In this document: in pieces, positions 6,168 to 57,236 of the stretch
Position numbering within the stretch: position 1 is the stretch's first letter
How the letters are laid out: the number at the start of each line of letters is the position of its first letter
DNA from: Thermoanaerobaculia bacterium
GTDB taxonomy: Bacteria; Acidobacteriota; Thermoanaerobaculia; Multivoradales; UBA5704
Assembly (NCBI GenBank): GCA_035995205.1
Contig: DASYKS010000041.1
Location: 173,671-237,670, forward strand
Direction of reading: 5' to 3'
Length of the DNA: 64,000 bases
Made by a program: the position numbers and the translations under genes
The notes under the pieces: generated by a model
What the model saw: the letters and a program-made list of their open reading frames with translations, nothing else
What the model was told of the DNA's origin: nothing
Database searches by the model: none

Positions 6168-8816
6168 TTACTCCCCCTTAAGCGCCAACACCGGACTGAT
6201 CCGCGTAGCGCGCCGCGCGGGAAGCCAAGCCGCGAGTGCCCCAAGCGTTCCCAATATCAACGCCGTCGCTGCGTAGGTCGCCGGGGCGTGGGGATCGATG
6301 CCGTAAAGAAGGCTCTTTAGCCCAGTTCCGAGCAAAGCGGCGAGGAGAACTCCAAGGACGACTCCTGCGAGCGACAGCGTGAGACCTCGGGCTAGAACTT
6401 GCTTGAGAATTCGGCCCGGGGAGGCTCCGAGGGCGGCTCGGACCGCCAGCTCCGGGGTGCGGCGGGTGACGTTGTAGGCCACCAGGCCCGCGATTCCGAT
6501 GGCGGCGAGCAGGAGGGCGAGCCCGGCGAAGAGGGAGACGACCCAGGTTTGCAGGCGCGGTTGGGAGACGCTTCCCGCGATCACGGTCGAGAGGGTTCGG
6601 ACATCGAACAGGGCGAGATCCGGCGCGAGCTGAGAGAGGGTGCGGCGGATGTCGGGGGTGAGCGCCGCCGGATCGCCCGCCGTGCGGACCGTGAGCGACA
6701 TCGTCGGCCAGAGGTACCAGGAGGTCGAGAAGTACATCGTGGGCGTCATGTCTTCGCCGAGGCCGATTTGTCGGATGTCGCCCGCGACGCCCACGACGGT
6801 GAACTCCTTGCCGTTGGCCAGGTAAACCCTCCTGCCGATCGGATCGGCGCCGCGCGGAAAGAGGCGCCGGACGAGCCCTTCGGAGAGCACGAGCGACTGG
6901 CCCGGCTCGTCGTGCTCCGCGAACCATCGCCCGCGGAGAAGCGGCACACCGAGGGTCGGCAGATACCCCGCGGTCACGATCCGCCAGGAGGCCTGGGTGC
7001 CTTCGCGGTTCGCTCCACCTTCGATGCTGGTACCCGGCGGTGGGGCGACCGCGGAGATCCCCATGCTCGTATCGCCTTCTCCCAAAGGGATCTCGCTGGT
7101 GAGCCCCGCGGAGGTCACGCCGGGCAGCGCGCGCACTCTCTCCATCAGCGCGCCGTAGAACGCGAGGTTCTTCTCCATCGTCTGGTCGTCCTCGGCCTCC
7201 GGCAGGGTCAGGCGGGCGGTCAGCAGGTGATCCGGCCGGAAACCGAGCGGCACGTTCTGCAACCGGCCGAAGCTCTGCGCCAGCAGCACCGCGCCGATCG
7301 AAAGGGCGGTCGCGAGCGCAAGCTGCGCCACCACGAGCCCTTCGCGGAGCGGCGCCCGGCGCCCTTCGACCGCGGAACGCCCGCCCTGGGCGAGGGCGGT
7401 ACGGACATCCGTCCGTCCGGCGAGCGCGGAGGGGAGAACCCCGAACAGAAACGCGGTCGCGGCGGTGAGCAGGAAGGCGACGACCAGCACCGGTCCGTTG
7501 AGCGCGATCGAAGAGAGGCGGGGGAGCGTGGCGGGCAGGAGGGCCGAAGCGCCGCGCAAGGCGGCCGCCGCGAGCGCCAGGCCCAATGCGCCGCCGAGCC
7601 CCGCGAGCAGCAGGTTTTCGATCATCAGGTGGCGAATCACACGGGCGGGGCTTGCGCCGAGCGCGCGGCGGATGCCGATCTCGCGGACTCGCGCCGTGGC
7701 CCGGGCGAGCTGGAGATTCGCGACGTTGGCGCAGGCGACCAGCAGCAGGACGCCCACCGCGGCGAGCAGGACCCAAAGCCGGGTGCGCAGCTCTCCGCCG
7801 ACGATCCAGTCGCGGACCGGCTCGACCGTTGCCTGCCAGCCCAGGTTGGTGTTGGGGAAATCGTGTTCGAGCCGCGCGGTGATTCCCTTGAGCTCCGTCC
7901 CCGCCGCGGCGAGGGTCGCGCCGGGAGCGAGCCGGCCGACCAGATAGAGCTGACGGTTGCCCCGGTTCGCCGAGGGCTGCGGCGAAAGCGGCAGCCAGAG
8001 GCCGATGTCGGTCGCAAAACCGACGTCCCCCGGTGCAATGCCCACGACCGTGCGCGGCTCGCCATTGACCCGAATCGACTTGCCGAGGATCGAAGTCTGG
8101 CCGCCGTAGCGGCGGCGCCAGAGCCTCTCGCCGAGGATCGCGACGGCGAGTCCTCCTGGGGTGTCCTCTTCTTGGGTGAACGCGCGGCCGGCCACCATCG
8201 GCGTGCCGAGCAGGTCGAACAGATTGGCCGAAGCGGCGACGCCGGTCACTCGTTCTACCCCCGAGGCCACGCCGTCGCCGGACAGGTTCACGCTCACGTC
8301 GCCCAAACCGGCGAGCGCGGAAAAGCTCTTGGCATTCTCCCGCCAGGAGAGAAAGTCGGGCACCGAGACCGAGAAGCGCGGCAGGTCGTGCGACGGGTTC
8401 GCCGCGGCGAGACGGACCACCCGCTCGGGCTCCACGAACGGCAACGGCGCGAGCAGCACGGCATGGACCAGGCTGAAGATCGTGGTGGCGCCGCCCAACC
8501 CCAGCGCGAGCGTTGCGACCGAGGCGAGAGTGAACGCCCGGTTGCCGGACAGCGCCAACGTGCGGACCGCTTGGGCGAGATCCTGGGCGAAACGGTTGCG
8601 GTGCTCGGAGAGAGCGGTGATCAGGGCGTCGGCCGCGACCGAGAGCCACAGCCACACGGCGGCGACCGGGCGCCGGGTGCGCCGCGCCTCCGCCCAGCGG
8701 GCGCCGAACGCGGCGGTCATCTCGCCGCCGTACTCCTCACGGAAGGAACCGGGATAGAGCCAAAGGAGCGAGGCGTACGCCCGCTCGGCCCAAGACGTTC
8801 TGGCTTCAGCGTCCAT
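6168..8816 (-). CDS. ABC transporter permease, duplicated FtsX/MacB-like (ADOP family, Acidobacterial duplicated orphan permease)
   Basis: An 882-aa protein with two FtsX-type permease halves and large periplasmic domains. It is paired with a PadR regulator, which is the hallmark ADOP arrangement. Confidence 0.85.
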   Translation of the reverse strand: MDAEARTSWAERAYASLLWLYPGSFREEYGGEMTAAFGARWAEARRTRRPVAAVWLWLSVAADALITALSEHRNRFAQDLAQAVRTLALSGNRAFTLASVATLALGLGGATTIFSLVHAVLLAPLPFVEPERVVRLAAANPSHDLPRFSVSVPDFLSWRENAKSFSALAGLGDVSVNLSGDGVASGVERVTGVAASANLFDLLGTPMVAGRAFTQEEDTPGGLAVAILGERLWRRRYGGQTSILGKSIRVNGEPRTVVGIAPGDVGFATDIGLWLPLSPQPSANRGNRQLYLVGRLAPGATLAAAGTELKGITARLEHDFPNTNLGWQATVEPVRDWIVGGELRTRLWVLLAAVGVLLLVACANVANLQLARATARVREIGIRRALGASPARVIRHLMIENLLLAGLGGALGLALAAAALRGASALLPATLPRLSSIALNGPVLVVAFLLTAATAFLFGVLPSALAGRTDVRTALAQGGRSAVEGRRAPLREGLVVAQLALATALSIGAVLLAQSFGRLQNVPLGFRPDHLLTARLTLPEAEDDQTMEKNLAFYGALMERVRALPGVTSAGLTSEIPLGEGDTSMGISAVAPPPGTSIEGGANREGTQASWRIVTAGYLPTLGVPLLRGRWFAEHDEPGQSLVLSEGLVRRLFPRGADPIGRRVYLANGKEFTVVGVAGDIRQIGLGEDMTPTMYFSTSWYLWPTMSLTVRTAGDPAALTPDIRRTLSQLAPDLALFDVRTLSTVIAGSVSQPRLQTWVVSLFAGLALLLAAIGIAGLVAYNVTRRTPELAVRAALGASPGRILKQVLARGLTLSLAGVVLGVLLAALLGTGLKSLLYGIDPHAPATYAATALILGTLGALAAWLPARRATRISPVLALKGE

Positions 8817-27587: not shown

Positions 27588-28718
27588 ATGCCCTCTCGAT
27601 TGCGCGCCGCCTTGTGTTGGGTCGTCGTTCTCGCCGCCTTCTCGGTTCCCCCGAGCCTTCGGGCTCAAAATGACCCGGAGACAGCGCTTGCTCCGGCCGG
27701 GCAGCCCCTTTCGTCCGACATCGGGGACGCTCCCGCGCCGGCTCCTCTCGCCCAGCCCATTCCGCCGCCGTCGAGCTTGGCCGCGGTGATCGGAACGGAG
27801 CCCGCTCCCAACGATCCGGTGCTCCACCTCGTGACCTCGCACAACCAGACCTATCCGCATCGGGCCGGGCTCCACGACCGGGTGACGGTCGAGATCAAGA
27901 ACATCAACCAACTGCTCGCGTCGGTCGGCAACGACTGCTCGCGCCTGATCCTGTTCATCGACGGGGTTCCGCTCACCGGAACGGCTCCCGAATCGTGCAA
28001 TCCGCTGCTCGGACGGGTCCGCTTCGAGCTCGACCGCACCGAAGCCTCGGACAACGGCTGGCGCGCTCTGCTCGGCAGCCCTACCGGCTTCGTGCGCAAG
28101 GTTCCGGTAAGCATCGGGCCGACCGGCGGTTTTCCGATTTTCACCGCGGTCCGGGAATTCGAGCTGCGCCTGCTGCCCACCACCGGCTTTTACAGTTTTC
28201 TCGGCCTGCTCAGTCTGGCGCTCCTGGTTCTCCTCTGGCTCGCGAGACGCACGTCGCTGCTGCGCGACCCGGGTCCTCCGGGATCCCTCGGCGCCTTCAA
28301 CCTCGGGCGGATTCAGCTCGCGTTTTGGTTCTTCCTGGTGGTCTCCGCTTTCGTCTTCATTTGGCTGGTGACCGACGAGGTCGATTCCGTCACCGGCTCA
28401 GTGGTCGCGTTGCTCGGCATTGGCTCGGGCACGGCGCTCGGTTCGGCGATCATCGACAGCGACAAACGCGAGAACGCCGGGCAGACTGCTCCGCCGGCCC
28501 GCACCTCGTCCGGATTGATCCGCGACGTCTTGCGCGACGACCATGGGAACTTGAGCTTCTACCACTTCCAGCTCGCGGTCTGGACCCTGGTGCTCGGCAT
28601 CATCTTCTGCGCCTCGGTTTACGACCGCCTTTCCATGCCCCAGTTCAACGGTACGCTGCTCGCCCTGCTCGGCATCAGCTCCGGAACCTTCCTAGGAGCG
28701 AAGAGTCCGAAGGGGTAG
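27588..28718 (+). CDS. Hypothetical secreted/membrane protein
   Basis: A Shine-Dalgarno sequence (aaggagga) lies 7 nt before the ATG. It has a signal peptide MPSRLRAALCWVVVLAAFSVPPSLRAQ and three or four C-terminal TM helices. Confidence 0.5.
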   Translation: MPSRLRAALCWVVVLAAFSVPPSLRAQNDPETALAPAGQPLSSDIGDAPAPAPLAQPIPPPSSLAAVIGTEPAPNDPVLHLVTSHNQTYPHRAGLHDRVTVEIKNINQLLASVGNDCSRLILFIDGVPLTGTAPESCNPLLGRVRFELDRTEASDNGWRALLGSPTGFVRKVPVSIGPTGGFPIFTAVREFELRLLPTTGFYSFLGLLSLALLVLLWLARRTSLLRDPGPPGSLGAFNLGRIQLAFWFFLVVSAFVFIWLVTDEVDSVTGSVVALLGIGSGTALGSAIIDSDKRENAGQTAPPARTSSGLIRDVLRDDHGNLSFYHFQLAVWTLVLGIIFCASVYDRLSMPQFNGTLLALLGISSGTFLGAKSPKG

Positions 28719-28780
28719 GGGAGAGGAGGGGGAGAGCAAGGCTGAAGGCTCGTCCCATCGCAGGACACTCTCCGACTTTG

Positions 28781-29095
28781 CACCGTGGCATTGGAGATTG
28801 CACCGGTGCAACGGAGTTTTGTAGTGGTACGCCGCCGTTTTGCACAGGTGCGCTGGAGAATTGCAGGGGTGCCCCGGCATTTTGTACTCGTGCAATCCGT
28901 CTGTGCACATGTGCAATCTCGCAGTGCACTCGTGCAATCCGCCAGTGCACATGTGCGCTGCGATTTTGCAGTGGTGCGCCGGCATTTTGCACCTGTGCAA
29001 TCCGACATTGCACTTGTGCACAGCCGCAGTGCACACGTGCATTCCGATTTTGTAGTGGTGCACAGCCGCAGTGCACCTGTGCACAGCGCTGTGCA
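28781..29095. repeat. Phased tandem array of about 15 copies of a 21-bp palindromic unit (consensus TGCACnnGTGCAAnCCGnnnt)
   Basis: There is an exact 21-bp period over at least 14 units. The core is TGCAC-nn-GTGCA with a variable tail. All six frames are open across the array. Variation falls on positions that would be codon positions 1-2, not wobble positions. The array sits in the convergent gap between the 27588 gene and hxsC. Confidence 0.8.
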
Positions 29096-49962: not shown

Positions 49963-49994
49963 CGGGAGGTGTTGAGGCTCGTCAAAGCTCTCAG

Positions 49995-50064
49995 CCGCAG
50001 CAGCCCTCACCCCCGGCCCCTCTCCCGAAAACGGGAGAGGGGCCGGGGGTGAGGGCTGCTGCGG
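49995..50064. repeat. Perfect 70-nt palindrome (32-bp stem, 6-nt loop)
   Basis: ccgcagcagccctcacccccggcccctctccc-gaaaac-gggagaggggccgggggtgagggctgctgcgg. It lies between the metallophosphoesterase and prsW genes. Confidence 0.5.
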
Positions 50065-50182
50065 CAAGTCGCTGCCGATTTTGACGGAGCCCTGCCGGTA
50101 GGTGCCGAGACCTGCCTGGCACCCACCGCCTCTGTGAGACAATGCCGCCACCGGATCCGTTGTCTCGGAGGAAGGTGGTCCC

Positions 50183-51172
50183 ATGGGGTTTCTGGTCGCC
50201 CTGATCGTGAGCTTCGTGCCGGCTTTCGCCTGCGCCCTGCTGGTCTATTGGTTAGATCGGTACGAGAAGGAGCCGCGGCTACTGCTCGGCGCGGTCTTCT
50301 TCTGGGGCGCCGTGGTCGCGGTGGTGGGCGCGCTCGTCGCGCAGCTGATCCTCGCCGGGGCGGTGACCGCGGCGACCGGTTCGGAGAAGGCGGCCGACGT
50401 CGCGGGCTCGACGCTGTTCGCGCCGATCACGGAAGAGAGTTTGAAAGGAATCGCCATCCTCGCCGTCTTCCTGGTGCTGCGCCGCGAATTCGACTCGGTG
50501 CTCGACGGCATCGTCTACGCCGCGGTCGTGGCGCTCGGTTTCGCCGCCACCGAAAATGTCTTTTACCTTTACGGGGAATTCACCGAGAAAGGGATGAACG
50601 GTCTGTTCAGTCTGTTCATCGTACGGGTGGTCCTCGGGATCTGGAACCATCCGTTCTACACCTCATGGATCGGCATCGGCCTTGCGCTCTCGCGCTTAAG
50701 CCCGAAGGCCTTCGTCCGTTGGTTCGCGCCGCCGTTGGGCTGGGCCGCGGCCTTGGGCTTTCATTCGCTGCACAACACGCTCGCGACGTTCGCGGAAGGG
50801 GCGCCCGGGTTGGGCGTTCTGATGTTTCTCGTCGACTGGCTCGGCTGGCTGGCGATCAGCATTCTGATCCTCGTCTCGATTCGCCGGGAGGGGCGCCTGT
50901 TGGGCACCCATCTGGCCGAAGAGGTGGGACTCGGCCGGCTGACCGCCGCTCAGTACAAAACGGCGACCTCCAGCTGGGCGCAGTCCGGCGCCCGGCTGCG
51001 TACCCTATTCGGCGCCGGCCGGCGGCCGACCCGGCGCTTCTACCAGGTGTGCGGCGAGCTGGCGCACAAGAAAGCCCAGCTCGCCCGGCTCGGCGACGAG
51101 GGGCGCAACCTGGCCCTGGTCGAGAAGCTGCGCGCCGAGCTGGCCGGCCTGTCCAGCCGGGCGATATGCTGA
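50183..51172 (+). CDS. PrsW-family intramembrane metalloprotease
   Basis: …ITEESLKG… (EExxK), …GFAATENVFY… and …FHSLHNTL… (HxxxN) sit on a polytopic membrane scaffold. Confidence 0.75.
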   Translation: MGFLVALIVSFVPAFACALLVYWLDRYEKEPRLLLGAVFFWGAVVAVVGALVAQLILAGAVTAATGSEKAADVAGSTLFAPITEESLKGIAILAVFLVLRREFDSVLDGIVYAAVVALGFAATENVFYLYGEFTEKGMNGLFSLFIVRVVLGIWNHPFYTSWIGIGLALSRLSPKAFVRWFAPPLGWAAALGFHSLHNTLATFAEGAPGLGVLMFLVDWLGWLAISILILVSIRREGRLLGTHLAEEVGLGRLTAAQYKTATSSWAQSGARLRTLFGAGRRPTRRFYQVCGELAHKKAQLARLGDEGRNLALVEKLRAELAGLSSRAIC

Positions 51173-51249
51173 GCTGTACCGACCGTCTATGACGTGCCGC
51201 AATTCTTGCTTGCCACAGCCGCTTCAACACACCATCTAAAGGGGAAGTC

Positions 51250-51924
51250 ATGGAAGTAACGATCAAGCATCAGCCCGCGTTCGCGCTCGCCATCGTCAAA
51301 CTGGGCAGCAACGAAGAGATCAAAGTGGAACCGGGCGCAATGGTCAGCCACACCGACGGCCTGACCACCGAAACCAAGGCGCAGGGGGGCTTTTTCGGCG
51401 GGCTCAAGCGCATGGTGGCGGGCGAGAGCTTCTTCCAGAACACCTGGAAGGCGCCGGCGGAAGGGGGCGAAATTACGCTCGCGGCGACCTTGCCCGGCGA
51501 CTTGATCACGCTGAAAATCGAGGGCAACGAATTCCTGCTGCGCAGCGGCGCCTATGTCGCGAGCGAAATGAACGTCGTCACGGATGCCAGCTGGGGCGGG
51601 GCGAAAGGCTTCTTCGGGGGAGGCGGCTTGATCCTGCTCAAAGTGAGCGGCCAAGGCCAGGTGCTCGCGTGCGCCTACGGCGCGATCGAGGAGCGGACGT
51701 TGGCCGCCGGGCAGTCCTATGTAGTGGACACCGGCCACATCGTCGGAATGGACGCGACCGTGCAGTTCGCGGTGCAAGGTTCCGGCGGCTGGAAATCCAC
51801 CATCCTCGGCGGCGAAGGGCTGGTCTGCCGCCTGACCGGACCGGGCCGTATCCTGATGCAGAGCCGCTCGGAAGAAGCCTTCCTGGGCTGGCTGCTGCCG
51901 AAGATTCCGACCAAGTCGAACTAG
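51250..51924 (+). CDS. AIM24/TIGR00266 (DUF124) family protein
   Basis: The length and the Gly-rich β pattern (…GGFFGG…GGGGLILLKVSGQG…VVDTGHIVGMD…) fit the family. Confidence 0.75.
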   Translation: MEVTIKHQPAFALAIVKLGSNEEIKVEPGAMVSHTDGLTTETKAQGGFFGGLKRMVAGESFFQNTWKAPAEGGEITLAATLPGDLITLKIEGNEFLLRSGAYVASEMNVVTDASWGGAKGFFGGGGLILLKVSGQGQVLACAYGAIEERTLAAGQSYVVDTGHIVGMDATVQFAVQGSGGWKSTILGGEGLVCRLTGPGRILMQSRSEEAFLGWLLPKIPTKSN

Positions 51925-51977
51925 GGGGCTGGTTCGCCGCCGACATCCGCCGGCCGGTAGGATGAACCTCGGGTCCT

Positions 51978-52847
51978 GTGACTTATACTTTCGCCATGGT
52001 GAAGAGTTCGCACCAGCACGAGACCCGAGGACCGTTTCACGCGGATCAGCTTCGCCCTGGCGATCCGTACGAGCTGTCGAACGGCCACCCGATTCACGGC
52101 CTGCCCACGGGGAGCCGGGGGGGAAGGGCGACGAACGTGGGGGGCGGAGTCCTCGCGAGCGATCCGGCGGTGCAGGACGTGGGGGTCGACATCGGCTTTT
52201 CTCCTTCCCCGGAAATCCTCCGCGCTCCGGACCTTGCGGTCGGCGAGATGCCCGACGAGCCGGGCTGGGTTCACGGAGCTCCGCCCTTGGCGGTTGAATA
52301 TGCCGACACCGGCCAAGACGAGGCCGCGTTGCGGATCAAGATGCAGGAGCTTTTCGCCGCGGGCACCCGCTATGTCTGGGTGGTGCGGCTGACGGGCCCG
52401 CGGCGCGTAGAGGTGCATCAGCCGGGTCTGAAGATGCGGATCGCAAATCCCGGCGAACAGCTCGTGGCGCCCGGAATCCTCGCCAATCCGGTGCCGGTCG
52501 AGGCCCTCTACGACCGTGAAGCGGCAAACCGGGTGATCTTCAAGAATCTCTTGGAGCGCCAGGGTTACGCCAGCCTGGACGACGTTCGTGCGGAGGGAGA
52601 GGCCCACGGACGTGCTGAGGGAGAGGCGATCGGACGTGCGGAGGGGGAGGCGCTTGGACGAATCGAAGGGGAGGCCCAGGGGTTGCGCCGGGCGATCGTC
52701 GCGGTTCTGGAAGGCCGCGGCCTGCCGGTCGACAATGAGCTGGAAACCGCCCTCGCAAGCGCCGATGACCCCTTCGTCCTCGAATCCACCCTCCGCCAGG
52801 CGGCCACGGGCTCTCTCGCCGACGTGCTCGCCGCCCTCCGCGCCTGA
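51978..52847 (+). CDS. Uma2 (DUF820) family endonuclease with a C-terminal AEGEAxGR octapeptide repeat tail
   Basis: …PDLAVGE…LAVEYADTGQDEA…GTRYVWVVRL… is the Uma2 PD-(D/E)xK core. It carries 4 copies of the (A/I)EGEA(H/I/L)GR repeat (24-bp DNA period, about 52600-52690). Confidence 0.7.
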   Translation: MTYTFAMVKSSHQHETRGPFHADQLRPGDPYELSNGHPIHGLPTGSRGGRATNVGGGVLASDPAVQDVGVDIGFSPSPEILRAPDLAVGEMPDEPGWVHGAPPLAVEYADTGQDEAALRIKMQELFAAGTRYVWVVRLTGPRRVEVHQPGLKMRIANPGEQLVAPGILANPVPVEALYDREAANRVIFKNLLERQGYASLDDVRAEGEAHGRAEGEAIGRAEGEALGRIEGEAQGLRRAIVAVLEGRGLPVDNELETALASADDPFVLESTLRQAATGSLADVLAALRA

Positions 52848-52984
52848 GCCGTCGAGCGGCTCCGTTGCGGTCAGTCCTTCTCGCGTCCGTGACAGCATGT
52901 CCCGGACCCCGACGCTGGTTCGCAGAGCACGGAAACCGCTTCGCGGCGGCAGAATACGACTCCACCGTCTTGGGGGCGCACTGC

Positions 52985-53640
52985 GCGCAACGCGAACACC
53001 CGTTCACCGGGTCCGGAACCCGGTGTTGTCGTTTGGATCACCACTCCGCCAGACCGGCGAACTTGTTTCTTGGCTGCGTCCACCACTTCGCCGGACCGGC
53101 GAACCGGTGTTTGGGCCCACCACCACTCCCATGAGCCGGAGTCGCGGTGTTCTCGCCCAGTACACCACTCCGCTGGCCCGGCGTAGTCGTGCCTTCGACC
53201 CGCGCACCACTCCCCGGGCCCAGAGGAGCGGTGATTTCCTTCAGTTCACTACTCCGCTGGCCCGGGGGAGTGGTGTTTTCGTCCAGCTCACCACTCCGCT
53301 GGCCCAGGGGAGTGGTGTTTTCATCCAGCTCACCACTCCGCTGGCTCAGGGGAGTGATGTGCTGGACCTTCGAACCACTCCCCCGGACCGGCGGACCGGT
53401 GGGCGGACGCGTATCACCACTTCCCTGAACGAGCGGAGTGGTGTTCCGGGTTGGCTTACCGCTTCGCCGAGCCCGCGGACTCGTGTTCGGGTTCGGCTCA
53501 CCGCTCCGGCGGGTCCGCGAAGGGGTGTTCCGAAGCGTGGGACCGCTTTGCCCTCTCCGCGGAGTCCTGTGAGGAAGCCGCGAACCGGTGGTCTCGGCCC
53601 GCGCACTGGTTTTAGGCTGTGGATCGGTCCGTCGGCGCCG
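52985..53640. repeat. Tandem array of about 14 degenerate 42-bp hairpin-forming units (core CCACTCC-GCTGGCCCrGG-GGAGTGG)
   Basis: There is an exact 42-bp phase between copies starting at 53247, 53289 and 53331. Flanking copies are more degenerate. Each unit contains a 7-bp inverted repeat. All six frames are open across the array. Confidence 0.7.
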
Positions 53641-53668
53641 GCCGCTACCGGTGTCCTCGTGCCGGAGA

Positions 53669-54529
53669 CTAGAGGGGCGCCGCGAGCCGATCCTGGAAAG
53701 TCTTGCGGTCTCCCTTCGCCGCCCGGCGGAAGCGTCGGGGGGAGACTCCGGCGGCGCGGTGGAAGGTCCGTACGAAGTTCGAAAGGTCGCCGAAGCCGAC
53801 GTCGAGCGCGATGTCGGTGATCGACCGCGAGTCGTCGAGCAGCCGGCGCGCCGCTTGGCGCAATCGCGAGCGGATCAAATACTGGTGCGGCGTGACGCCG
53901 AGAACGGCGGAGAAAAGCCGCAGGAAGTGAAACGAGCTGAGACCGGCCGCGGTGGCCGCCGCTTCGAGATCGATCGGCTCGTGCGAGCTCTCGTCGATCC
54001 ACAGCGCGGCTTCGACTGCGCGGCGGCGATCCCGGGCTTGCAGCTGCGATGGCCTCGGCGCCCGCCCGCTGACGGCTTCCAAGAATTGGCCGGCCAGCCC
54101 AAGGCCCGCCTCTTCGAGGCCGATATCGCTCCGGCCTTCGGCGGCGGCCTGCGCGAGCTCTCCGGCGACCATCAATTCGGGTAGCGGCGGCAAGCCGCCA
54201 ATCCGCCAGACGTTCCGGCCTGCCGGCGGCGACAGCTCGGCGAGGGTTTCTACCTGGGCGGGCGGGAAGTGAAACGACAGGCATTCATCGCCGCCGGCAT
54301 GATGATCGTGGGAACAGACGAACTCGTCCCCCGCGCAACCGACCAGGATCGATCCGGCGACCAGCTCGAAAGACTCCCCCCGGGTGCGATAGCCGAAGGT
54401 TCCCCGGCGCACGTAGGAGAGGCAGAAATCGACGTGACGCTCGGTGAAGGGCGCGTCGGCCGGGCCGGCGGCGCAACGGAAGTCGATCGCCGAGATCGCT
54501 CCGGTCTCTAGGATCTTGGTGGCTTTCAT
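53669..54529 (-). CDS. AraC/XylS family transcriptional regulator
   Basis: A C-terminal double HTH (…[24 protein letters not shown]…[33 protein letters not shown]). Confidence 0.8.
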
Positions 54530-54593
54530 GGTCCGAAACCTCCGCCGCCCGGGTTACGAAGATCCGGGCGGCGGAGGGTTGCTAGTCAGAGAC

Positions 54594-57236
54594 CTACTTG
54601 CTTGCCTCGACCGAGAAGTCGATCAGCTCGGCAGGGGTCAAACCGGACAGTTTCCACATGCCGCGGCCGTGGGTGGCGACGACGATCTGGCCGGTCGGAT
54701 TGTCGGTGGAGATCGCCGCCTTCATGTCCATCACGGCGACGTTGGGCAGACCCGTGCCGTACGGCGCCCAGCTGCCGCCGCTGTTGAACGAGACGTAGAC
54801 GCCGATGTCGGTCCCGGCCCAGATGCGGTTGTTGTCGGTCGGATCGACCGCCAGCGCGTTCACCGGGATGTTCGGGATGCCGGTCCCCGAGGGGAGCCAG
54901 GTGGTGCCGCCGTCGATCGACTTCCTGACGTTTTGGCCGGCGCTCGCGGAGAAGCCGGAGAGCGCCGAGTAGACGACCATCGAGTTGCTCGGGTTGATCA
55001 CCAGGTCGGAGACGTAGATGTTCGGCGAATCGACCAAAGTGAAGCTCGCGCCGGTGTCGGTCGAGCGGAAGACCCGGCCGTCGGACGAGCCGGTGTAGAG
55101 GATTGCGGCGTTGGTGCCGCCATGCGCGGGCGCCTGGGCCGCGAGCGTCTCGATGGTGCTGATCGCACCGCCGCCCGCCGTGAGATCCTGTCCGCCGCCG
55201 GTGCCGAGCGGGAAGAAGATCACGGTCGTCGGGGTCGCCGTCTGGGCGGCCGCGAAGAAGCCGGGGGACCGGTAGAGCTTGTTGGTGCCGTAGTAGAACG
55301 TGTCGGTGGCGCCGCGGTCGAGCGCCAACGGGGCGTAGAACAGGACCCGGTCGGAGAGCGGGATGCCGTTGTTGACCAGGACGCCGCACGACGCCGCGGA
55401 ACAGGCGCCGACGATCGTCGTGTAGTCGTTCGGCGTGGACGCCACGCCGAGCAGCGAGGTGGTGGCGGCCATCAGGCTGCCGCTCTGGTTGAAGTAGGTG
55501 TGGACGACGTTGAGCGGAGCGGTCTGGTCGATCAGCGCGAAACCGCCGTCGCCGTCGTCCGAATGAGCCCAGCCGAACGAGCCGCTGCCGGTGTTCGTGC
55601 CGTTGTCCTGGGTGCCGCCGTACGCGGTGCTCGCGGTGGCCGGATGCAGGTCGACGCCGGTGAACTGGACGGTGTTGATGTTGGAGTTCTTGGTCGCCCA
55701 GTTCGTGCCGCGGTCGGGCGAGCGCCAGACGCCGCCGTCGCAAGCCGCCCACAGGGTCGTGGGGGTGACCGGGTCGGTGATCAAGTAGTGGGTGTCGGAG
55801 TGGACGGCGGTCGTGGCGTCCGCGCTGATCATGATGTCGGCGAACGTGGTGCCGCCGTCGGTCGAGCGGCGGACGTTCGCGCGGGTGGCGCCCGCCGAGG
55901 CGACCGCTCCGGCGCCGCCGTGGTAGACGATCATCGGGTTGTCCGGCTGAGCCCAGACCGGCTGGTCATAGAAGCACTGGCCGCCGCAGTAGCCGTTCGC
56001 CGCCGCGAGCTGAACCCAGGTGGCGCCGCCGTCGACCGACTTGTAGATGCGCCCCGGGTTCTGGCCGGCGTTGGTGAAGCTGTTGCCCACGTAATAGGTC
56101 GCCAGGGGGTCGGCCGGTGCTTTGGCGACCGCGATCGTCGCGCGCGCCCAGGCGGCGGCCGCCGCCGGCAAACCGCTCGCGCCGCCCGCGACCTGCGTCC
56201 AGGTGACGCCGTTGTCGATCGACTTGACGACACCGCCGTTCAGAGTTCCGGCGCCGAGGGCCGACTGCCAGCCGGCCGCGAACCAGGTGGTCGCGGTGAC
56301 CGGGTCTTGCACGAGGTTGTTGTAGCGGTTGTTGTCGGTTCCGGCGCCGCAGGTGGTGCAGGTCCAGGTGAGCCCGGCGTCGGCCGAGCGGTAGATGCCG
56401 CGCGGAGCCAAGACCGCCGGCTGGGTGGCGCCGACGCCGAAGATGCCGGACGCGGTGGCCACGAGCAGGATGCTCGGGTTGTTGCGGTCGATCACGATCG
56501 AGCCGATCGTCCGGCCGGTGAACTCGACGCTGCCGAACGGGCCGCTCCAGGTGGCGCCGGAATTCGTCGACTTGTAGACGCCGACGCCCGCGTAACTGTC
56601 GCCCGAGCCGTTCGCTTCGCCGGTGCCGAGATAGATCGTCGCGGTCGTCGCGGTGTGCGCGGTGGAATCGATCGCAATCGAGCCGACCGCGAGCGAGCCC
56701 AGGAAGTCGGTGATCGGGCTCCAGGTCGTGCCGTCGTCGGTGCTCTTCCAGATTCCGCCCTGGGCGGTGCCGAGGTAGACCGGGTACGGCGCGGCGACGC
56801 CGGCGTCGATGCCGATCACGTTCGCTCGACCGCTGCAGTCGCTCCGGTTGTTGCCGTTCTGCGGCGTCTGGCCCTGCTGAATCGGCTGCGGGCCGAGGGG
56901 AGTCCACACCGTGCCGGTCCGGAGCGTCGCCGGGGGCTGGGTCGATTTCATTTGGATCGCTTCCGCGCGGGCGGCCGCGGCATTGAATTCGCCTCCGCCG
57001 ATATTCTGCCGACGAAGAGCGTAATAGGCATCGCGTAGCGAGACGTTCGCCTCTTCCTTGACGGTCTCGAATGCCTGCTCCGGCAGGCGAGGGGTGGTGG
57101 CGGGGGCTTTGGCCCCCTGGGCGATCAGCGCGCCGGAGGCGCCGATCGCGGTCGCCAGGATCATGGCGACGACAGATTTCGAGCGGGGTGCTGTTTTATT
57201 CAAAGAATCCTCCTTTTCCTGCCGGGGGGTCGGCAA
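54594..57236 (-). CDS. Secreted BNR/Asp-box repeat protein (GH74/sortilin-like β-propeller)
   Basis: At least 10 Asp-box motifs (S-x-D-x-G-x-T-W), for example …KSTDDGTTWSP…, …KSVDGGATWVQ… and …KSIDGGTTWLP…. The C-terminus ends …LTPAELIDFSVEASK. The start may be the internal Met MILATAIG…. Confidence 0.7.
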   Translation of the reverse strand: MPTPRQEKEDSLNKTAPRSKSVVAMILATAIGASGALIAQGAKAPATTPRLPEQAFETVKEEANVSLRDAYYALRRQNIGGGEFNAAAARAEAIQMKSTQPPATLRTGTVWTPLGPQPIQQGQTPQNGNNRSDCSGRANVIGIDAGVAAPYPVYLGTAQGGIWKSTDDGTTWSPITDFLGSLAVGSIAIDSTAHTATTATIYLGTGEANGSGDSYAGVGVYKSTNSGATWSGPFGSVEFTGRTIGSIVIDRNNPSILLVATASGIFGVGATQPAVLAPRGIYRSADAGLTWTCTTCGAGTDNNRYNNLVQDPVTATTWFAAGWQSALGAGTLNGGVVKSIDNGVTWTQVAGGASGLPAAAAAWARATIAVAKAPADPLATYYVGNSFTNAGQNPGRIYKSVDGGATWVQLAAANGYCGGQCFYDQPVWAQPDNPMIVYHGGAGAVASAGATRANVRRSTDGGTTFADIMISADATTAVHSDTHYLITDPVTPTTLWAACDGGVWRSPDRGTNWATKNSNINTVQFTGVDLHPATASTAYGGTQDNGTNTGSGSFGWAHSDDGDGGFALIDQTAPLNVVHTYFNQSGSLMAATTSLLGVASTPNDYTTIVGACSAASCGVLVNNGIPLSDRVLFYAPLALDRGATDTFYYGTNKLYRSPGFFAAAQTATPTTVIFFPLGTGGGQDLTAGGGAISTIETLAAQAPAHGGTNAAILYTGSSDGRVFRSTDTGASFTLVDSPNIYVSDLVINPSNSMVVYSALSGFSASAGQNVRKSIDGGTTWLPSGTGIPNIPVNALAVDPTDNNRIWAGTDIGVYVSFNSGGSWAPYGTGLPNVAVMDMKAAISTDNPTGQIVVATHGRGMWKLSGLTPAELIDFSVEASK

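Follow-up and report, generated by a model that had tools for sequence, protein, structure and literature searches.

Between positions 52995 and 53666 of the window, the 64,000-nt stretch of Thermoanaerobaculia contig DASYKS010000041.1 analyzed here, lies a tandem array of 42-bp palindromic units. The array fills the space between two converging genes, which are given as context only: a Uma2-family (PD-(D/E)XK-like) gene on the forward strand (51978-52847; Pfam PF05685, E 1.3e-7) and an AraC/HTH_18 regulator gene on the reverse strand (53669-54529; identified from its open reading frame (ORF) and by Pfam). The Uma2 gene holds a 24-bp coding repeat (AEGEAxGR) at 52587-52660, as a preliminary description of this DNA had stated. 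In our best reading, to which we give about an even chance, the array is a self-propagating palindromic minisatellite and one copy of a low-copy, lineage-restricted 42-bp family of Thermoanaerobaculia-type Acidobacteriota.

Anatomy and setting of the 42-bp array

Laid out from 52995, the array comprises 16 slots in one 42-nt register, each slot made up of a 29-nt palindrome and a 13-nt spacer. The tandem array that the preliminary description reported is thus real. An inverted-repeat search gave the palindrome as CACCACTCCGCTGG-C-CCAGGGGAGTGGTG (CACCACTCCCCTGGGCCAGGGGAGTGGTG as the full 29-mer), with 14-nt arms that are 93% complementary and lie 1 nt apart. Tandem Repeats Finder called a period of 42 at 53146-53360 (5.1 copies, 78% matches, 0% indels, score 248), a second period-42 stretch at 53433-53530 and an 84-nt super-period. 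The sole register break, according to the layout and a MAFFT alignment, is a 2-nt offset of slots 1-3.

The core at 53247-53372 consists of three near-identical units, delimited by inverted-repeat search, register layout, pattern match and pair states. Within the 64 kb, matches to the 29-mer with at most 3 mismatches were found only at 53247, 53289 and 53331 (2, 0 and 2 mismatches, respectively), while none was expected by chance; three near-identical central copies between degraded flanks had been claimed before, and this holds. The core palindrome reads CAC(C/T)ACTCCGCTGG-C-(C/T)C(A/G)GGGGAGTG(G/A)TG, with a G.G mismatch at pair 10/20, and the spacer of the first two core units is TTTTC(G/A)TCCAGCT. 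The best palindrome of the array, with 13 of 14 pairs, lies at 53289-53317 (inverted repeat, pattern match and single-stranded DNA (ssDNA) fold); it has an 11-7-11 layout, in which the arms CACCACTCCGC and GGGGAGTGGTG flank the 7-nt TGGCCCA. Only in this unit are CCACTCC and GGAGTGG both exact, contrary to the statement that each unit carries them, and the units at 53247 and 53331 are each one base off in one of the two. A looser pattern, CACCACTCC-N11-GGAGTGGTG with at most 3 mismatches, found nine units, all in phase, where 0.03 were expected. It should be pointed out that the copy number of the near-identical core was possibly collapsed by short-read assembly.

Degraded units flank the core on both sides and keep 3-11 of the 14 palindrome pairs. 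The left flank (52995-53246) holds six 42-nt units, the first three offset by 2 nt, as judged from register layout, pair states and the MAFFT alignment. Its first slot contains a terminator-like hairpin on the forward strand (53005-53025; CACCGGGTCCGGAACCCGGTG then TTGTCGTTTG), 158 nt past the Uma2 stop, which a terminator consensus scan picked out; taken alone this hairpin is weak, as the scan gave a single site where shuffles lead one to expect 1.1. The right flank (53373-53666) holds seven units in exact register, supported by register layout, pair states, spacer comparison and Tandem Repeats Finder, and stops 2 nt short of the AraC stop codon. Its spacers are of the TTC(C/G)G.. type, like those in the right arms of the related arrays described below.

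The array is non-coding. All six frames had been called open, but over 52995-53666 the stops per frame number 4/0/3 on the forward strand and 3/10/1 on the reverse strand, so that only the forward TTPL frame is open. That frame would allow a repeat protein of 14-residue TTPLAxGSGVFxQL units: it is stop-free through the whole array as part of a 410-aa ORF (52588-53820), the equivalent frame of a related array (L035) holds a 233-aa ORF, 42 nt equals 14 codons and indels are few. A conserved protein of this kind was sought as the finding that would overturn the non-coding assignment, and none exists. No Pfam family matches the array translation, and a search of 5.8 billion protein clusters gave no homologue at E <= 0.001. 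GC content by codon phase is flat in the array (0.66/0.68/0.67) and strongly phased in the Uma2 gene (0.77/0.49/0.78), and no ORF with a coding bias at third codon positions overlaps any of 11 arrays. The window ORF overlaps the Uma2 gene by about 260 nt and the AraC gene by about 150 nt, and stops break the TTPL frame in 5 of 10 arrays. Between homologous arrays the ratio of non-synonymous to synonymous differences (pN/pS) in the best frame is 0.46-0.56, compared with 0.13 in a neighbouring gene, and the 'synonymous' sites of the array are more conserved than those of that real gene. On composition, broken frame, lack of Pfam match and homologue, and pN/pS, we reject a coding repeat protein, which we consider extremely improbable.

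The Uma2 gene, the array and the AraC gene together form a strain-specific segment of 2,638 bp (51926-54563; blastn against L049), in whose place the syntenic relative L049 has 311 bp (7677-7987). Both flanks are retained in L049: window 50127-51925 corresponds to L049 5862-7676 and window 54564-57170 to L049 7988-10594, with Metallophos, PrsW and AIM24 genes on one side and a BNR/sortilin gene on the other. The AIM24 protein of L049 is 88% identical to that of the window. In AIM24-based look-ups, other relatives carry different genes downstream of AIM24, without the array. Because L049 lacks the segment and the other relatives differ after AIM24, the array lies in a variable, strain-specific segment. 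An AraC- and AIM24-based comparison found the Uma2-array-AraC segment in no close relative, and an identical contig exists in a Joint Genome Institute metagenome (0 differences across 823 nt). The genes neighbouring the array are Uma2, AraC, AIM24 and BNR/sortilin genes, and Pfam annotation of the called genes within 10 kb found no partition, cas, transposase or IS200/RAYT gene.

Several other features of this locus deserve mention. The site downstream of AIM24 is a hotspot of variable cargo, namely the Uma2 nuclease-like and AraC genes in the window and a PDDEXK_11 nuclease with a D12 methyltransferase at the same site in L048 (7799-9394). The AraC protein is 100% identical to an NCBI entry from a Thermoanaerobaculia metagenome-assembled genome, so that the source belongs to this class; otherwise, its closest homologues are about 70-71% identical and taxonomically scattered (Sorangium, Dokdonella, Methylocapsa). 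A hairpin with a 15-bp stem (CCTCCGCCGCCCGGG-TTACGAAGA-TCCGGGCGGCGGAGG; 54539-54577) follows the BNR/sortilin gene and marks the right edge of the strain-specific segment; L049 has an apparently equivalent hairpin in the corresponding position, although blastn matches the two sequences only from 54564 onward. Further upstream, between the end of the Metallophos gene (49962) and the PrsW gene, the hairpin AGCCGCAGCAGCCCTCACCCCCGGCCCCTCTCCCG-AAAA-CGGGAGAGGGGCCGGGGGTGAGGGCTGCTGCGGC (49993-50066) has 34 of 35 stem positions paired in a search that allowed one mismatch, and it far exceeds an ordinary terminator stem.

Related arrays and their turnover

A genome scan with the pattern CACCACTCC-N11-GGAGTGGTG, using one genome per species, returned 32 loci. 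Seven of them, from Thermoanaerobaculia or 'Holophagales' metagenome-assembled genomes (MAGs), are period-42 arrays of nearly the same palindrome, CACCACTCCCC-N7-GGGGAGTGGTG (L001, L009, L011, L022-L024 and L031), and the single hairpins at the remaining loci are unrelated. A scan of metagenomes contributed a further seven loci (L035-L041), some identical to those of the genome scan, which brings the total to about eleven distinct arrays. All share one anatomy: about 11-17 units stand in exact register, near-perfect in the centre and degraded towards either end. The left-flank units of the window at 53037 and 53079 are similar to edge units of the L024 array. Hence the suggestion of a class of intergenic elements is borne out, as several genomes of Thermoanaerobaculia type have the same 42-bp arrays, at several loci.

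A unit-profile scan of the 64-kb window and the array-bearing loci found no solitary unit, with exactly one cluster per locus, and the units are absent from 75 kb of relatives fetched for another reason. Because at most three contigs matched per representative genome, a genome appears to hold a handful of arrays. The units had no match in plasmids, phages or viral contigs; a mobile-element or phage origin was rejected, since viral contigs gave three unrelated single hairpins and plasmids and phages gave nothing. Flanking genes are unrelated between loci. We accordingly discarded the idea of a partner gene, the neighbours being different everywhere (CN hydrolase, XerC/D-like, FGE-sulfatase, Ada-like, RibD_C, secreted protease, CHAT-NACHT, FtsX, helicase and others). 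In the literature open to our search, we found no account of such arrays in this lineage, and the family is apparently small, lineage-restricted and previously undescribed.

Some further observations concern individual members or look-alikes. Among the ordinary CACCACTCC units of the L001 array there is, at 7300-7657, another type of 42-nt unit, GGAACACTCCGTTG-GAA-CAACGGAATGTTCC with an 11-nt spacer; it retains the 14-bp stem and the 42-nt period, and its outer stem bases are changed on both sides. In three loci (L024 2055-2171, L036 2339-2455 and L001 7742-7900), the array stops some 100 nt upstream of a 120-aa gene (MGDKSYAAKI(N/D)RWQS..., no Pfam family) that is homologous between them and is preceded in all three by the motif TTTCT..CAG.GA.TTAC. 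Long hairpins with reiterated CCACTCC / GGAGTGG heptamer-like motifs occur in L005 (7300-7360; a Chthoniobacter MAG) and L042 (9290-9400; a viral contig), which thus have the arm motif but no 42-bp array.

Comparison of homologous arrays revealed turnover in the centre. L009, L023, L035 and L037 are homologous, their edge units matching one for one, while the near-perfect units vary from 1 to 4 on the left of a landmark unit and from 4 to at least 7 on the right. L024 and L036 likewise differ in central unit number. Because edge units correspond while central numbers differ, expansion and contraction take place in the centre, in line with the repeat-generating process that had been proposed. 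Moreover, the FGE-sulfatase gene beside the L009 array is present in L035 as a truncated 3' fragment that accompanies the array there; therefore, segmental duplication spreads arrays as blocks.

Each array has its own spacer types, which are homogenised within it. In L024 the spacers past the central near-perfect unit are the reverse complements of the earlier ones (8-11 of 13 positions), and weaker signs of such a flip are present in L031 and L009 (9 of 13 at best). For the core block of the window, the best alignment is with the left block of L009 in reverse complement. Internal inversions between inverted arms would be the simplest explanation of these spacer flips.

Pairing, arm conservation and competing explanations

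When folded as ssDNA, the units at 53247, 53289 and 53331 gave -8.0, -13.0 and -8.8 kcal/mol (z -1.6, -4.8 and -2.1). Only 53289 folds clearly better than shuffles, 53079, 53247 and 53331 are marginal, and the remaining units are indistinguishable from shuffles. The proposed string of stem-loops therefore stands for the core units, which are good palindromes, but not for the flank units, which mostly fold like shuffles. Pairing scarcely depends on which arms are combined: 9.00 of 14 pairs form within units, 8.84 across units and 8.89 between the arms of adjacent units, and in diverged units pairing is 7.62 against 7.87 after permutation. Across 85 units from six independent arrays, 73.4% of cells are paired compared with 71.9% in shuffles, and the covariation score is 0.186 against 0.161 (5/500), a value that relatedness alone can yield. 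At the level of unit types palindromy is kept, since edge units (CACCGCTCCGC...GCGGAGCGGTG) and centre units (CACCACTCCCC...GGGGAGTGGTG) differ in three consensus pairs, changed on both sides. The pairing in non-core units is leftover similarity to a palindromic consensus and not compensatory change, and the hairpin at the level of the single unit is largely not selected.

These results bear on the possibility that the array is a selected single-strand hairpin in the manner of REP/BIME elements. Carried after transcription on the converging mRNAs, at their 3' ends, the stem-loops would terminate transcription, block 3' exonucleases or serve as a gyrase- or RAYT-type target. Several observations are in its favour. 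The core units have GC-rich stems of 13-14 bp, two of them followed by TTTTC on the forward strand downstream of Uma2; the arrays are located downstream of genes, in many cases where two genes converge (the window, L009/L023 and L011, as well as the unrelated array of L048); and the consensus sequences of the unit types differ by two-sided changes. Long-range folds of either strand also beat shuffles by far (z -9 and -16), although whole-array folds are uninformative because inter-unit pairing dominates, which is trivial when every unit is palindromic. However, unit-level covariation is almost nil, A.C mismatches are frequent and most units fold no better than shuffles. The terminator scan calls neither of the two TTTTC-tailed core units and reports only 53005-53025, at chance frequency, while several related arrays have no T-rich tails. 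We see no dispersed single copies, no GTAG/CGTC tag and no IS200/RAYT gene within 10 kb. We thus regard a selected hairpin as quite unlikely.

A structured RNA was considered and rejected on several grounds. No Rfam family passed the gathering threshold (0 hits), an E-value scan returned sub-threshold microRNA-like hits only, which are noise, no tRNA or tmRNA was found, and the covariation is within the range explicable by relatedness. The strand of a putative RNA cannot be called from G.T versus A.C bias, as this wobble-pair signal has mixed signs and is block-clustered and non-independent. A CsrB-like sponge, with GGA in the 13-nt linkers, was dismissed as well, because chance alone makes GGA frequent in DNA of this GC content and the linkers are not conserved between arrays.

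Conservation of the arms raises a different possibility, namely that a dimeric, lineage-specific DNA-binding protein recognises the array as a phased set of duplex sites. In that case the units would serve as palindromic sites of 11-7-11 layout, with the half-site CACCRCTCC(C/G)C, and the 42-bp spacing (four helical turns) would place bound dimers on one face. A nucleoprotein complex would nucleate on a strong central site and extend over the weaker flanking sites. Such an array could be centromere-like, nucleoid-organising or a set of recombinase sites. Between blocks of different arrays and genomes, identity is 90% in the 11-nt arms, compared with 57% in the central 7 nt and 47% in the spacers. 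A2, T7, C9, C11 and their mirror positions are conserved even in degraded units. Covariation is weak and arm variants assort nearly independently, as at positions 5/25 (AT 43, AC 31, GC 24, GT 16). Spacer length stays at 13 despite differing sequence, and the register breaks of 21 nt amount to two helical turns. In addition, the outer-left units of one set of arrays are under nucleotide-level constraint, and the window has a second phased array, of another palindrome with a 21-bp period. The core site of dif has an 11-6-11 layout. The layout of the units resembles such tyrosine-recombinase core sites, and the L009/L023 array begins just past a XerC/D-like gene; nevertheless, identity with dif or a DnaA box was rejected, since nothing matches the consensus sequences and only the 11-7-11 geometry is reminiscent of dif.

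On the other side, no candidate protein has emerged, with neighbour genes that differ at every locus and no partition, cas or transposase gene within 10 kb. The changed arms of the L001 variant units and the 53-bp hairpin array of a relative (L048) favour a generic structural process instead. The edge units of L024 and L036 evolve at about the neutral rate, and the symmetric conservation profile comes partly from mixing block orientations. Duplex binding sites are the main rival explanation, possible but, on the whole, not probable.

The other phased arrays mentioned above can be described briefly. The second palindromic array of the window, which the preliminary description had also noticed, is present at 28777-29092, just downstream of a gene ending at 28718. 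Its units, about 15 in number, keep an exact 21-nt register, and each combines a palindrome of 12-13 bp, [T/G]TGCA[C/G]-NN-GTGC[A/G], with a spacer of some 8 nt; the array has no centre-to-edge gradient and, judged by its letters, looks like a phased operator array. A link between the 21-bp and 42-bp arrays beyond phased palindromes did not hold up, as they share no sequence and the TGCAC motif was absent from all 44 of the 44 loci fetched by then. In L048 (3252-3557), a tandem array of period 53 (5.8 copies, 91% matches, two small palindromes per unit) lies between converging AMP-binding and PDZ genes, which suggests a general propensity for such arrays in the lineage.

In a bolder version of protein recognition, which we hold to be unlikely, the 42-bp arrays would be chromosomal nucleoprotein assembly sites. 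A putative lineage-specific dimeric protein, possibly a tyrosine-recombinase-like factor or one resembling ParB or a nucleoid-associated protein, would recognise the 11-7-11 site, nucleate on the perfect central sites and spread from them over the weaker ones that follow in phase at intervals of four helical turns; together with the 21-bp TGCAC array, they would form a new class of phased palindromic arrays organising Thermoanaerobaculia chromosomes.

As a palindromic minisatellite, the array would maintain itself. Identical, hairpin-capable central units would grow and shrink by slipped-strand mispairing or unequal exchange, and the inverted arms would permit inversions of internal blocks, which would leave spacer polarity flips beside the central near-perfect unit. 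Units displaced to the edges would drop out of amplification and then decay. If efficient amplification needs self-complementary arms, the arms would stay conserved while loops and spacers drift. Occasional duplication carries whole arrays into new intergenic sites. Any host effect would be secondary. Since TTTTC follows two core units on the forward strand, the most plausible, albeit unproven, effect would be that hairpins act as a barrier to, or a terminator of, the transcripts converging from Uma2 and AraC.

A number of points weigh against a self-propagating minisatellite. Slippage and drive, like any effect on the host, are inferred and not observed. Although units have diverged by about 40%, the 42-nt register persists in them with hardly any indels, and the only other register breaks are 21-nt half-units (L031 and L038). 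Such persistence looks like a spacing constraint, which simple decay does not predict. Some arm positions are conserved above 0.9 while others vary freely and independently between arms, a pattern more in keeping with sequence-specific recognition than with hairpin drive alone. The G.G mismatch is present in the amplified core unit of the window itself. Furthermore, the four outer-left 'degraded' units of L009 (5881-6048), L023 (6274-6441), L035 (3798-3965) and L037 (reverse strand) are 81-93% identical between loci, compared with 68% at the 4-fold sites of the neighbour gene. No convincing coding signal was found in them, and their conservation suggests a function for at least those units.

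If the minisatellite explanation is true, it matters mainly for annotation, in that the arrays should be masked as a repeat family and not annotated as ORFs or RNAs. The core copy number in short-read MAGs would probably be unreliable, and the arrays could be used as strain markers (variable-number tandem repeats, VNTRs) within an acidobacterial class that is uncultured. In addition, the family offers a clean natural case of palindromic minisatellite evolution, with a young centre, old edges and internal inversions, in which arms are conserved without pair covariation. If the units are binding sites after all, they would point to a new DNA-binding system in a little-studied phylum, for which a 29-bp bait is ready.

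Comparison with known systems

Two known kinds of regular array were considered and set aside. CRISPR arrays likewise consist of a partially palindromic repeat, here of 29 nt, in a regular tandem array. However, CRISPR spacers are unique and about 30-40 nt long, whereas the 13-nt spacers of the present array are homologous to one another, the repeats decay toward both ends and no cas gene lies within 10 kb, so that a CRISPR was rejected. In the sopC site of plasmid F, a 43-bp unit is repeated twelve times in tandem, and SopB binds an inverted repeat within each unit. The arrays share with it tandem units of about 42-43 bp (about four helical turns), a palindromic site of the protein-binding type and a copy number of about a dozen. 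They differ in being chromosomal, with several per genome, and in their much longer palindrome (29 bp). A plasmid centromere of the sopC/parC type was rejected on the lack of partition genes within 10 kb and of any plasmid or phage match.

In our best reading, the array is likened to the REP/BIME/BOX/STAR-like intergenic repeats. REP elements are short GC-rich extragenic palindromes with a GTAG or CGTC tetranucleotide at one stem foot (PMC3733652). With the REP/BIME elements of Enterobacteria and Pseudomonas, which are associated with RAYT, an IS200/IS605-like tyrosine transposase, the arrays have in common a short (20-40 bp), GC-rich, extragenic and non-coding palindrome, a preference for the 3' sides of genes and converging gaps, and clusters of up to about a dozen. 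Here the palindrome measures 29 nt, and 11 of 11 arrays are free of coding-like ORFs. On the other hand, the present arrays are direct and fixed-period tandem only, whereas BIMEs alternate in orientation; successive units share spacer type and orientation, and where a flip is seen (L024, L031 and L009) it occurs at a single point. There are no scattered singletons or dimers, and a genome holds a handful of arrays and not hundreds of copies. Neither GTAG nor CGTC is found at the units, which are flanked by ..AGCT|CACC and GGTG|TTTT, no RAYT is among the called genes within 10 kb and compensatory variation is almost lacking. Membership in REP/BIME was rejected on dispersion, tag and alternating orientation.

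The BOX elements of Streptococcus pneumoniae (boxA-boxB(n)-boxC) and the intergenic mosaic elements of Neisseria have a variable number of central repeats of about 45 bp between more constant end modules. Like the present arrays they are modular and intergenic, have a high folding potential and occur in many contexts. Their sequences are unrelated and their lineage is a different one, however, and the copy number per genome is far lower here. Besides, the array ends here are degraded copies of the same unit and not distinct modules.

The MIRU-type elements of Mycobacterium are intergenic minisatellites whose copy number is variable between strains. In contrast to the present units, MIRUs are not palindromic and some are translated. 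The STAR elements of Staphylococcus, as far as their description in PMC3532100 goes, are interspersed intergenic repeats whose copy number varies between strains, built from short GC-rich direct motifs with longer spacers and not from long palindromes. With both, again as far as that description of STAR goes, the arrays have in common that they are intergenic direct repeats or minisatellites of variable copy number. As in minisatellites and VNTRs generally, whose units measure 10-100 bp, the 42-nt units stand head to tail, and their number varies between homologous loci.

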